Origin: Actinomycetes bacterium
GTDB lineage: Bacteria > Actinomycetota > Acidimicrobiia > Acidimicrobiales > Bog-793
Direction: 5' to 3'
Assembly: GCA_021809425.1 (NCBI GenBank)
Contig: JAKBAA010000006.1
Span: 1,119-65,118 of the forward strand
Length of the DNA stretch: 64,000 nucleotides
Shown here: piece by piece, positions 26,371 through 29,461 of the stretch
Layout of the letters: the number at the start of each line of letters is the position of its first letter
Numbering within the stretch: position 1 is the first letter of the stretch
Notes under the pieces: generated by a model
Seen by the model: only the letters and a program-made list of their open reading frames with translations
Told to the model about the DNA's origin: nothing
Databases searched by the model: none
Made by a program: the position numbers and the translations under genes

Positions 26371-28241
26371 CGCCCGGCGCCCTCGTGGACCCGGGCGTGG
26401 ACGGCCCGGGCGACCGGCTCGGGCAGCCACGACAGGGCGAGCAGCTCGTCCAGGCTGGCCTGGCGCACGCCGCGCACGCCGCCGAGCTCGGCGACGAGCC
26501 GCTGGCGGCGCGCCGGGCCGAGGCCCGGGACGTCGTCGAGGGCCCCGCGGGTCATCCGCTTGCCGCGCAGCTGGCGGTGGTAGGTGATGGCGAAGCGGTG
26601 CGCCTCGTCGCGGACCTGCTGGAGCAGGTAGATGGCCGGCGAGTCCCGCGGGATGCGCACCGGTGCCGACCGCCCCGGGAGGAACACCTCCTCGAACTGC
26701 TTGGCGAGGGCGGCGAGGGCGAGCCGGCCGGTCAGGCCGAGCTCGGCGAGCACCCGCTCCCCGACGTGCAGCTGGCCGAGGCCGCCGTCGAGCAGGAGCA
26801 GCTGCGGCGGGTAGGCGAACCGGACCGGACGGCCGTCGGCCGGGGCCGGCCGGGCGGACTCGTCGTCGAGCAGGCGGCGGAGCCGCCGGGTGAGCACCTC
26901 GTGCATCGCCCCGTAGTCGTCGTTGCCCTGGACGGCGCTCACCCTGAAGCGCCGGTAGTCGCTCCGCTTGGCGAGCCCGTCCTCCATGACGACCATCGAG
27001 CCGACGTAGTCGGTCCCCTGCAGGTGGCTCATGTCGTAGCACTCGATGCGAAGGGGGGGCTCGTCGAGGCACAGGTGTGCCTGCAGCTCCTCGAGCGCCT
27101 GGGCCCGGCTCGTGAGGTCGGACGAACGCCGCATGGTGTGCCGCTGCAGCTGCTCGGCGGCGTTCTTCTCGGCGACCTCGAGCAGGCCCCGCTTGCGCCC
27201 GCGCTGGGGCACCCGCACCCCGACCCGCGACCCGCGCCGCTCCCCGAGGAACTCCTCGTAGGTCGCCGCCTCCTCGGGCAGGTCGCGCACGAGGACCTCC
27301 TTCGGGACGCCGAGCGGGGTCTCGGCGTACTGCTGCTCGAGGGCCCGGGCGACGAGCTCGGGGCGGGTGAGCGGCTCGACCTTCTCGAGGACGAATCCCT
27401 GCCGGCCGACCACCCGGCCGCGCCGGACGTGCAGCACCTGGACGGCCGCCTCCAGCTCGTTCTCGGCGACCGCGACCACGTCGAGGTCCTCGGGCGTGTC
27501 GACGACCATCTCCTGGCGCTCCACCGCCAGTCGGAGCGCGGCCAGCCGGTCACGAAGGCGCGCCGCCAGCTCGAACTCGAGGTCGTCGGCGGCCGCCGCC
27601 ATATCGGCCTCGAGCCGGGCCGTCACCGGCCCGGTGTCGCCGTCGAGGAACCCCATCAGCTCCTCCACGAGCACCCGGTACTCCCCCGGCGACACCTCGC
27701 CGACGCAGGGCCCGGAGCAGCGCTCGATGTGGAACAGCAGGCACGGCTTGCCGAGCCGCTCGTGCCGGTTCAGCTTTGCGTTCGAGCACGTCCGGATCGG
27801 GAACGACCGCAGCAGCAGGTCGAGCGTCTCTCGGATGGCGTAGGCATGCGCGTACGGGCCGAAGTACCGCGTCCCCTTGCGTCTCGCCCCCCGCATGACC
27901 GTGGCGCGCGGCCACTCCTCATCGAGGGTGACGGCCAGGTACGGGTAGCTCTTGTCGTCGACCAGGCGGATGTTGAAGCGGGGCCGGTGGGCCTTGATCA
28001 GGTTGTACTCGAGCATGATCGCCTCGACGTCGCTGCGGACCTGGATCCACTCGACCGAGGCGGCCCGTGCCACCATCTGCGCCGTGCGCGGGTGCAGCAG
28101 GCGCGGGTCCTGGAAGTAGTTGGACAGCCGCTGGCGGAGCGAGCGCGCCTTGCCCACGTAGATGATCCGGCCGTCGGCATCCTTGAACTGGTAGGACCCC
28201 GGGCCGTCCGGTATCGCTGGCGGTCGCTCGAGCACTACCAT
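26367..28241 (-). CDS. uvrC: excinuclease ABC subunit C
   Basis: GIY-YIG motif YVGKA, IECYDMSH, RDEAHRFA, HhH GLGP. Confidence 0.98.
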   Translation of the reverse strand: MVVLERPPAIPDGPGSYQFKDADGRIIYVGKARSLRQRLSNYFQDPRLLHPRTAQMVARAASVEWIQVRSDVEAIMLEYNLIKAHRPRFNIRLVDDKSYPYLAVTLDEEWPRATVMRGARRKGTRYFGPYAHAYAIRETLDLLLRSFPIRTCSNAKLNRHERLGKPCLLFHIERCSGPCVGEVSPGEYRVLVEELMGFLDGDTGPVTARLEADMAAAADDLEFELAARLRDRLAALRLAVERQEMVVDTPEDLDVVAVAENELEAAVQVLHVRRGRVVGRQGFVLEKVEPLTRPELVARALEQQYAETPLGVPKEVLVRDLPEEAATYEEFLGERRGSRVGVRVPQRGRKRGLLEVAEKNAAEQLQRHTMRRSSDLTSRAQALEELQAHLCLDEPPLRIECYDMSHLQGTDYVGSMVVMEDGLAKRSDYRRFRVSAVQGNDDYGAMHEVLTRRLRRLLDDESARPAPADGRPVRFAYPPQLLLLDGGLGQLHVGERVLAELGLTGRLALAALAKQFEEVFLPGRSAPVRIPRDSPAIYLLQQVRDEAHRFAITYHRQLRGKRMTRGALDDVPGLGPARRQRLVAELGGVRGVRQASLDELLALSWLPEPVARAVHARVHEGAGR

Positions 28242-28277
28242 CGAGGCTACGCCGGCCTGGCATCCCGGCGGACAGAT

Positions 28278-28347
28278 CACGACTCGAGGCCGACAACCCC
28301 GCGGATGGGCGACCAGGCTGTCCCCGCCGGCCGCAGTACGAGCCGTG
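28278..28347 (+). ncRNA. candidate NAD+-I (nadA motif) riboswitch-like aptamer
   Basis: GGCCG/CGGCC stem, one-sided ACAACCCC bulge, GCGG/CCGC stem and an outer stem, ending about 20 nt before the nadA ATG. Confidence 0.6.
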
Positions 28348-28366
28348 CAGAAGGCAAGGGGCCACC

Positions 28367-29461
28367 ATGTTCCGCCTACAGACACCACTGCCCGAGCGCT
28401 ACGTCCACGCCGCGCCCGAGGAGCTCGAGACGTGGATCCGGCAAGCCCGCCAGCGCCTCGGCACCCGCTGCGTGGTCCTCGGCCACCACTACCAGCGCGA
28501 CGAGGTCATGCGCTGGGCCGACGCCCGGGGCGACTCGTTCGGGCTGGCCCGCTTCGCCGCCGACCAGCGCGCCGCCGACTACGTGGTGTTCTGCGGCGTC
28601 CAGTTCATGGCCGAGTCGGCCGACGTGCTCACCGCCGCCCACCAACAGGTGGTGCTGCCCGACCTGAACGCCGGCTGCTCGATGGCCGACATGGCCGACC
28701 TCGAGGCCGTCGAGACGGCCTGGGACGAGCTCGCCCGGGTGGTCGACCGCTCGACGGTGCTGCCGATCACCTACATGAACTCGTCGGCCACCCTGAAGGA
28801 CTTCGTCGGCCGCAACGGCGGTGCCGTGTGCACGTCCTCGAACGCCGCCGCCGTGGTCACCTGGGCGCTGGAGCGGGCCGACAAGGTGCTCTTCTTCCCC
28901 GACCAGCACCTCGGCCGCAACACCGCCGTCGCCCTCGGCTACGACCTGGCCGACACCCGGGTCTGGGACCCGCGCCTCGCCCTCGGCGGCCTCGAGGACG
29001 TCGACGTGAAGGCGGCCCGGTTCCTGCTCTGGAAGGGCCACTGCTCGGTCCACCAGCGGTTCCGGCCGGCTCATGTCGAGGCGTTCCGGGCGGCGCACCC
29101 GGGCGGGGTGGTGGCGGTGCACCCGGAGTGCAGCCACGAGGTGGTCGCCCTCGCCGACGTGGTCGGCTCGACCGACGCCATCATCCGCTACGTCGACCAG
29201 GCGCCGGCCGGCACGGCGATCGGGATCGCCACCGAGATCCACCTCGTGCACCGGCTCGCCGACGAGCACCCTGAGCTCGCCGTCAGCTCGCTCGACCCGC
29301 TCGTGTGCCCGTGCTCGACCATGTTCCGCATCGACGAGCCGCACCTCGCCTGGGTCCTCGAAGGGCTCGTCGAGGGCGAGGTGCGCAACCGGATCGTGGT
29401 GCCCGGCGAGGTCGCCGAGGGTGCCCGGATCGCCCTCGAGCGGATGCTCTCGATCAGCTGA
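28367..29461 (+). CDS. nadA: quinolinate synthase
   Basis: GHHYQ, FCGVQFMAE, AGCSMAD, YMNS, GHCSVH, HPEC, CPCSTM. Confidence 0.97.
   Translation: MFRLQTPLPERYVHAAPEELETWIRQARQRLGTRCVVLGHHYQRDEVMRWADARGDSFGLARFAADQRAADYVVFCGVQFMAESADVLTAAHQQVVLPDLNAGCSMADMADLEAVETAWDELARVVDRSTVLPITYMNSSATLKDFVGRNGGAVCTSSNAAAVVTWALERADKVLFFPDQHLGRNTAVALGYDLADTRVWDPRLALGGLEDVDVKAARFLLWKGHCSVHQRFRPAHVEAFRAAHPGGVVAVHPECSHEVVALADVVGSTDAIIRYVDQAPAGTAIGIATEIHLVHRLADEHPELAVSSLDPLVCPCSTMFRIDEPHLAWVLEGLVEGEVRNRIVVPGEVAEGARIALERMLSIS

Follow-up and report, generated by a model that had tools for sequence, protein, structure and literature searches.

The nadA gene is the first committed gene of de novo NAD synthesis, and the question raised by this locus is whether the leader that precedes it in a genome of the Acidimicrobiia, a mostly uncultured class, acts as a riboswitch, and of which kind. 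The window, i.e. the whole stretch of 64,000 nucleotides analysed, had received an initial annotation in which this leader was read as a single-domain NAD+-I (nadA motif) aptamer. The assignment of the leader to the nadA gene of an actinobacterium was confirmed: the downstream open reading frame (ORF) encodes NadA (Table 1), and the genome belongs to the Acidimicrobiia.

The spacer between the divergent uvrC (minus strand) and nadA (plus strand) genes occupies positions 28242-28366 of the window (about 125 bp), and the 3' neighbours of nadA, encoding a GGDEF protein and UvrA, lie on the opposite strand. The uvrC ORF is 673 aa long and carries UvrC domains; because its GIY-YIG domain begins at residue 65 of the ORF, the true uvrC start is predicted to be the ATG at 28241..28239. 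A purine-rich stretch is seen in the sequence ahead of the nadA ATG at 28367. The -10-like box of nadA (28233-28242 region of the window) overlaps the start codon of the divergent uvrC, in relatives as well, and the divergent uvrC-nadA pair is retained across much of the class, including genomes that have lost the RNA.

Table 1. Positions in the window of the parts of the nadA leader and of the nadA gene.
Feature	Position	Strand	Remarks
-10-like promoter hexamer TACCAT (TANNNT type)	28236..28241	+	predicted; overlaps uvrC start codon
5' hairpin (stem 28250-55/28265-70, loop 28256-64)	28250..28270	+	6/6 stem pairs changed on both sides
Pseudoknot strand a, CCUGG, in 5' hairpin loop	28256..28260	+	pairs with 28313-28317
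Single-stranded junction GACAGAU	28271..28277	+	commonest form in the class ACAUAUC
Outer stem P0, 5' strand	28278..28286	+	pairs with 28339-28347; 8/8 modelled pairs changed on both sides
P1, 5' strand	28288..28292	+	pairs with 28328-28332; 4/5 pairs covary
One-sided 8-nt bulge ACAACCCC	28293..28300	+	class-wide consensus ACANCCCC
P1a, 5' strand, 4 bp	28301..28304	+	pairs with 28324-28327; second pair C-G 42, U-A 23
Internal loop (AUG on 5' side, C28323 on 3' side), P1b (28308-10/28320-22), apical loop (28311-19)	28305..28323	+	
Pseudoknot strand b, CCAGG, in apical loop	28313-28317	+	pairs with 28256-28260
3' strands of P1a, P1 and P0, with 3'-side internal loop 28333-28338	28324..28347	+	alignment, RNAalifold
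SD-like AAGGGG (28356-61) and nadA start codon (28367-69)	28356..28369	+	sequence; P0 ends 8 nt 5' of SD
nadA, quinolinate synthase	28367..29461	+	Pfam NadA PF02445, E 2.6e-91; monocistronic here

The nadA leader is a structured RNA

The MFE fold of 28249-28347 (-36.0 kcal/mol) was identical to that proposed in the initial annotation, with P1, the bulge ACAACCCC, P1a and the outer stem at the same positions, except that it contained in addition the 5' hairpin (28250-28270), which had been omitted together with its pseudoknot. Folding of 28270-28370 gave a different structure (z +1.64) and not the expected one, because the 5' hairpin was cut off. In a longer fold (28249-28390) a competing structure was obtained (-46.8 kcal/mol), in which the hairpin region was paired with 28303-28320; it was taken as a chance structure, as the extra CAUCC/GGAUG pairing was absent in relatives when these were inspected by eye. 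An extension of P0 through the flanking AUAU runs was also discarded, since by eye it was not conserved across sequences. The single-sequence stability of 28249-28347 was at chance level (energy z +1.08; 174 of 200 shuffles folded at least as well), and ACANCCCC occurred 10 times in the 64,000-nt window, for 9.25 occurrences expected. The leader fold is not above chance on a single sequence; its support is comparative.

NadA relatives were present in 23 of 41 related genomes, and the upstream sequence was examined for 21 nadA loci. A strongly conserved leader was found at 19 of these, and RNAalifold applied to the 19 relatives recovered the outer stem, P1, the 8-nt bulge and P1a. The 19 relatives were used to build a covariance model (R1), and a second model (R2) was built from 65 sequences. 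In the 65-sequence alignment, standard pairs occupied 96.6% of cells and 25 of 31 pairs had changed on both sides, counts that are biased towards helices as the alignment was fitted to the nested helices. None of 500 shuffles reached any of the observed pairing measures, and slid controls were 22-50% paired. The conservation of the bulge and of its flanking stems in related nadA leaders, on which the initial annotation had made its proposal depend, was observed at the 19 loci and in the alignment, and the alignment also showed covariation.

Pairing in the 5' hairpin stem, which also forms in the MFE fold, was found in 95.1% of cells. P1a had been described as capped by a 5-bp hairpin; the three inner pairs, which constitute P1b, were kept and all three covary in the 65-sequence alignment, but the first and fifth pairs received no support, the pair 28307/28323 not being conserved (column 83: G36/U15/A9/C2). 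P0 carries here a single A.C mismatch (28282/28343). One P1b pair was G.U in 45 of the 65 sequences, and these G.U pairs identify the nadA sense strand as the RNA strand.

The penultimate P1 pair, beside the bulge (C28291:G28329), was C:G in 65/65 sequences (columns 66/115), and P1a was 4 bp long and opened with a G:C pair in all 65. The composition of the bulge was, position by position, A61/C4, C65, A65, N, C52/A12, C63/A2, C65 and C65. It read exactly ACANCCCC in 46 sequences and deviated in 19, of which 12 had A at position 5, a variant frequent in the source organism's own family, and 4 had C at position 1. On the 3' side, the internal loop between P1a and P1b was a single C (C58/A6), facing 2-3 variable nucleotides on the 5' side. 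The GA that precedes and the CU that follows the pseudoknot strand in the apical loop were nearly invariant, and the motif ACA[U/C] was present in 39 of the 65 junctions between the 5' hairpin and P0.

The pseudoknot CCUGG/CCAGG was absent from the model used for the alignment; its covariation is therefore an independent test. At the middle position, 52 sequences had U-A, 6 had C-G and 4 had G-C, and the pair was never broken; the outer pair was C-G in 61 and U-A in 2. Among 120 further loci listed, the exact complement of the apical pentamer lay at most 75 nt upstream in 118, and it was present at 16 of the 16 listed loci in which the middle base was not A (G, C or U). These substitutions show that a covarying 5-bp pseudoknot joins the 5' hairpin loop to the apical loop. 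In conclusion, the comparison of leaders shows that 28249-28347 specifies a real structured RNA of about 100 nt, on the sense strand of nadA.

Two weak members of the family, of about 29 bits (L078:1510-1604 in G060 and L079:316-410 in G065), lacked the CCUGG/CCAGG loops; by eye, they had UUCCC 5' of the hairpin and GGGAA in a longer apical loop. Their -10-like hexamer lay about 10 nt further upstream to match, and the spacer to nadA was 72-76 nt.

Distribution of the RNA and its link to nadA

In the source genome, R1 had a single match, the nadA leader (99 bits). At E<=0.01 it matched 47 of 151 genomes of the class, with one copy each, and two more when filters were turned off; it had no match in 140 genomes sampled from the phylum's other classes. 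One R2 match outside the class (G226, 33.1 bits) was rejected, as it fell inside a 485-aa ORF and its bulge was mismatched.

Each of the 65 aligned copies directly precedes a NadA start and shares its strand, the distance being 9-85 nt, mostly 9-22. A scan of named genomes with an exact pattern gave at least 120 loci: NadA follows in 119 of the 120 listed, and only 141 nt of downstream sequence was available for the remaining one. The labels of 80 listed loci were nearly all those of metagenome-assembled genomes (MAGs) of Acidimicrobiia, Acidimicrobiales, Acidimicrobiaceae, Microthrixaceae or Iamiaceae, or of MAGs with a name no finer than Actinomycetota/Actinomycetes. Three listed MAG loci (L119, L150 and L153) were labelled Burkholderiales or Bifidobacteriaceae, which probably reflects mislabelling or a binning error rather than transfer.

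A NadA match was found in 74 of the 151 genomes of the class, and 58 of them had the same NadA type as the source organism. The RNA was present in 49 of these 58 (47, plus the two detected with filters off). The other nine, four small AT-rich genomes among them, had NadA of the same type with no such leader, and the 16 genomes of the class with a distant NadA type (about 40% identity) all lacked the RNA. A family of 35 genomes of the class (about 1.1 Mb) had no NadA match at all. Taken together, these counts show the link of the RNA to nadA, which was exclusive among the copies compared, and they point to an RNA family specific to Acidimicrobiia.

Predicted transcript start and putative read-out

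In 62 of the 65 aligned leaders, a TANNNT hexamer starts 17 to 11 nt upstream of the base at which pairing of the 5' hairpin begins. This fixed distance predicts a transcript start at about 28248-28250, at the foot of the 5' hairpin, so that the whole element would be transcribed. The transcript is accordingly predicted, from the position of the hexamer, to begin at the base of the 5' hairpin, which would make the leader the very 5' end of the nadA mRNA. In metatranscriptome contigs from four libraries, belonging to four studies, the aptamer core is continuous with the nadA coding sequence of relatives; these contigs weakly suggest that the leader is transcribed with nadA, as carried-over DNA is possible in such libraries. 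Contigs cannot show transcript starts, and in four runs no RNA-library contig covered 28240-28273 at 80% likeness.

A promoter and terminator scan with an E. coli-type consensus, which does not fit here, returned no site. The lack of a terminator-like site, together with a space before the start codon that is mostly too short, favours translational control. As P0 ends a few nucleotides before the Shine-Dalgarno (SD) sequence, the read-out is probably at translation initiation. We modelled the partition function of 58 leaders with the aptamer either enforced or blocked, the blocked state being one in which the 5' strands of P0 and P1 are blocked. The unpaired probability of positions -14..-5 averaged 0.43 in the enforced state and 0.41 in the blocked one, and the SD region was less unpaired with the aptamer enforced in 28 of the 58 leaders; in these models, SD exposure did not depend consistently on formation of the aptamer. 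Steric hindrance beside the SD, Rho termination and 5'-end-dependent decay are all possible read-outs.

In about 27 of 50 copies outside the 15 leaders most similar to the one studied here, a C-run comes right after P0 and is followed by a G-rich SD (counted by eye and without a control); in the source organism's own family the C-run is located after the SD instead. Two members (L211:50-157 in G055 and L212:176-281 in G044) have about 100 nt from the aptamer to the nadA start, compared with the usual 20-30, and may use a different expression platform.

Relationship to known NAD+ riboswitches and candidate function

To our knowledge, no ligand has been shown for the second domain of NAD+-I riboswitches. 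As described in the crystallographic report, domain 1 consists of a P1 with a penultimate C:G pair, the ACANCCCC bulge, a 7-bp P1a, a GYG loop and P1b (PMC7297122). The GYG is on the 3' strand, and its two G pair with two cytosines of the bulge, docking the bulge; C6:G47 and A8 bind the adenosine of the ligand, the neck of the bulge holds a Mg-diphosphate, and the domain sees the ADP moiety only (PMC7297122). In the survey of Malkowski et al. the nadA motif occurs in Acidobacteria only, and every complete example is tandem (PMC6859854).

The Acidimicrobiia leader shares with NAD+-I its position upstream of nadA and, with domain 1, an 8-nt ACANCCCC bulge that lies on the 5' strand and is unopposed. 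Both RNAs have C:G as the penultimate pair of P1, C28291:G28329 corresponding in position to C6:G47, and P1a opens with G:C in both. There are seven stacked pairs (4+3 in the leader) from the bulge to the conserved unpaired bases that come next, and control is presumably translational, near the SD. The resemblance noted in the initial annotation is therefore genuine as far as the bulge sequence, its topology and the downstream gene are concerned: from the predicted transcript start to the ATG of nadA there is a single bulged stem, with a ACANCCCC-type bulge. The bulge, the C:G pair and the G:C pair of P1a are the parts that touch the ADP and the Mg ions in the NAD+-I crystal structure.

The two RNAs also differ in several respects. 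The leader belongs to Actinomycetota (Acidimicrobiia) whereas NAD+-I belongs to Acidobacteria; it has a 4-bp P1a, an internal loop and a 3-bp P1b in place of the 7-bp P1a; and its last P1 pair is G:C instead of A:U. The GYG loop that pairs with the bulge cytosines in NAD+-I is absent, and the pocket may differ for this reason. The tandem domain 2, with the SD inside its stem, is also absent, whereas P0, the 5' hairpin and the covarying pseudoknot between hairpin loop and apical loop are extra. Position 1 of the bulge, which stacks on the ligand in NAD+-I, is C in four members of the present family. As P1a and P1b amount to seven stacked pairs, the apical GA/CU and the pseudoknot helix would lie at the distance of the NAD+-I docking loop, and from this geometry we infer that they may take over its role.

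In searches with the Rfam nadA model (RF03013) there was no match in the leader (28200-28420), either at gathering (37.5 bits) or at E<=10, and no match at E<=5 in 20 other family members. In the source genome the best match (15.5 bits) was elsewhere than the leader, and in the 151 genomes of the class no match exceeded the cut-off and no sub-threshold match was located at a nadA leader. No family of Rfam 15 matched this RNA or 20 other members. The leader RNA is not a member of RF03013 as defined.

The novelty of an actinobacterial single-domain RNA, which the initial annotation had put forward, holds only in part, since a variant of domain 1 has been published in actinobacteria, as the ubiB motif (nine examples, Nocardia; PMC6859854). 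The ubiB motif has in common with the leader its actinobacterial origin, a bulged stem resembling domain 1 and the lack of a second bulged domain. Compared by description, it retains two features of domain 1, the 7-bp spacing and the internal loop, and is followed by a plain ribosome-binding-site (RBS) hairpin; it sits on ubiB and not on nadA, and the published description mentions no pseudoknot. NAD+-II (pnuC motif, Streptococcus), according to the reports on it, is likewise NAD-related and uses a pseudoknot, but is unlike the leader in sequence and fold and in its gene, pnuC; it recognises the nicotinamide side, and the RBS takes part in its pseudoknot (PMC7749635; PMC10085692). Only two classes of NAD+ riboswitch have been reported (PMC10702441), the first being NAD+-I. 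A search of the full-text literature, confined to main texts outside subscription papers, found no account of a nadA RNA from actinobacteria or Acidimicrobiia.

We favour the reading that the leader is a pseudoknotted riboswitch that controls nadA in response to NAD+ or to the ADP part of it, a reading to which the comparative evidence leads us to give a probability of about 0.6. It would probably be an undescribed kind of NAD-sensing switch, in which the NAD+-I bulge is set in a different, pseudoknotted scaffold; the RNA may descend from the NAD+-I binding module, and it is possibly a riboswitch class of its own. In this riboswitch candidate, which would act in cis, the aptamer would be the segment 28249-28347 at the 5' end of the nadA mRNA; it would form a long bulged stem (P0, P1, 8-nt bulge, P1a, P1b) whose apical loop kisses the 5' hairpin loop. 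An ADP-type pocket, as in NAD+-I domain 1, would be formed by the junction of P1 with the ACANCCCC bulge and by the invariant C:G pair, and the pseudoknot and 5' hairpin would replace the 7-bp P1a and the GYG loop in holding the shape of the bulge. As to ligand, sign and read-out, we infer that NAD+ (or its ADP moiety) would be sensed, and that plentiful cofactor would lead to less NadA synthesis, probably at translation initiation. A more specific version is tentative, and we consider it doubtful rather than probable: the RNA would constitute a third structural class of NAD+ riboswitch, in which the ADP module was kept or reinvented, a kissing-loop clamp replaces the GYG, and a domain made of the pseudoknot, the conserved ACAUAUC junction and the GA/CU recognises the nicotinamide half, a recognition that NAD+-I lacks.

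Four other explanations were weighed against a NAD-sensing riboswitch. One, that the leader is an ordinary NAD+-I member missed by the Rfam model, which was the one-domain reading of the initial annotation, accounts for the shared gene, bulge sequence and side, C:G pair and P1a G:C start. We nevertheless regard it as very improbable, given the absence of RF03013 matches (in the leader at E<=10, in 20 members, and over the cut-off in 0 of 151 genomes), a P1a of 4 and not 7 bp, the lack of the GYG and of domain 2, and the added hairpin and pseudoknot; in the reverse direction, R2 gave only 12.3 bits (E 0.52) on a NAD+-I-like element. Conservation could in principle act on DNA, through a promoter or operator common to the divergent uvrC and nadA, and the short intergenic space and the overlap of the -10 box with the uvrC start would suit such an arrangement. 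Compensatory changes that keep pairing over 10 to 70 nt, pseudoknot included, G.U pairs that fit one strand only, and the location of the element downstream of the predicted -10 leave this explanation with next to no likelihood.

A riboswitch for another ligand is less likely than the favoured reading but a more serious alternative than these two. The ligand would be ATP/ADP (as a measure of energy), a precursor of NAD such as NaAD, NaMN or quinolinate, or ADP-ribose, and the bulge a generic ADP/phosphate pocket or a product of convergence. NAD+-I RNA has been reported to bind ATP and ADP in vitro as well as NAD+, and the full-length RNA to bind ATP at least as well as NAD+ (PMC10702441), while its domain 1 recognises only the ADP moiety (PMC7297122); a shared core is therefore no proof of specificity for NAD+. 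The differing scaffold (pseudoknot, conserved junction, GA/CU) could moreover add a second pocket, and bulge position 5 varies between C and A. Against another ligand, the RNA is tied to nadA alone, as end-product control predicts, and, with one match per genome, no copy was found at an energy or nucleotide gene. A leader that is structured but has no metabolite as ligand is improbable, if not to the same degree as the two explanations weighed first; it could be a protein site (for a NAD-responsive RNA-binding regulator or for NadA itself), a 5'-end stability element or a ribosome-standby element. No expression platform emerged from the folding models, and a hairpin at the predicted 5' end could govern 5'-end-dependent decay; however, the unpaired core, invariant and information-rich, agrees with the ligand pocket of a riboswitch already proven for nadA, and aptamers typically show what is seen here, a fold that is compact (about 100 nt) and pseudoknotted and has conserved junctions.

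The NAD-sensing reading bears on a puzzle raised by the published work on NAD+-I, in which domain 1 sees ADP only and the RNA as a whole fails to discriminate between NAD+ and ATP. With the same core and the same gene on another scaffold, an independent family of hundreds of members would allow a direct test of the core by itself, and of the contribution that specificity and switching require from a second element. It would also test the proposal of Huang et al. (PMC7297122) that the ADP module is old and can be reused as a building block. If the third-class version were true, the family would be a natural experiment on which parts of the NAD+-I aptamer are essential. The RNA would be the first class-specific riboswitch candidate for Acidimicrobiia and would add to Rfam a family missed by current annotation.

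Three sub-threshold RF03013 matches were observed in the same class, away from nadA. One (L083:1501-1579 in G105, 23.7 bits) lies inside an HsdM methylase ORF and is probably due to chance; another, L081:1501-1575 in G179, scored 29.2 bits. The third (L082:1501-1579 in G062, 24.7 bits) has no clear downstream gene and is a near-textbook NAD+-I domain 1, with a ACAUCCCC bulge, a 7-bp P1a and a CAGUG loop.
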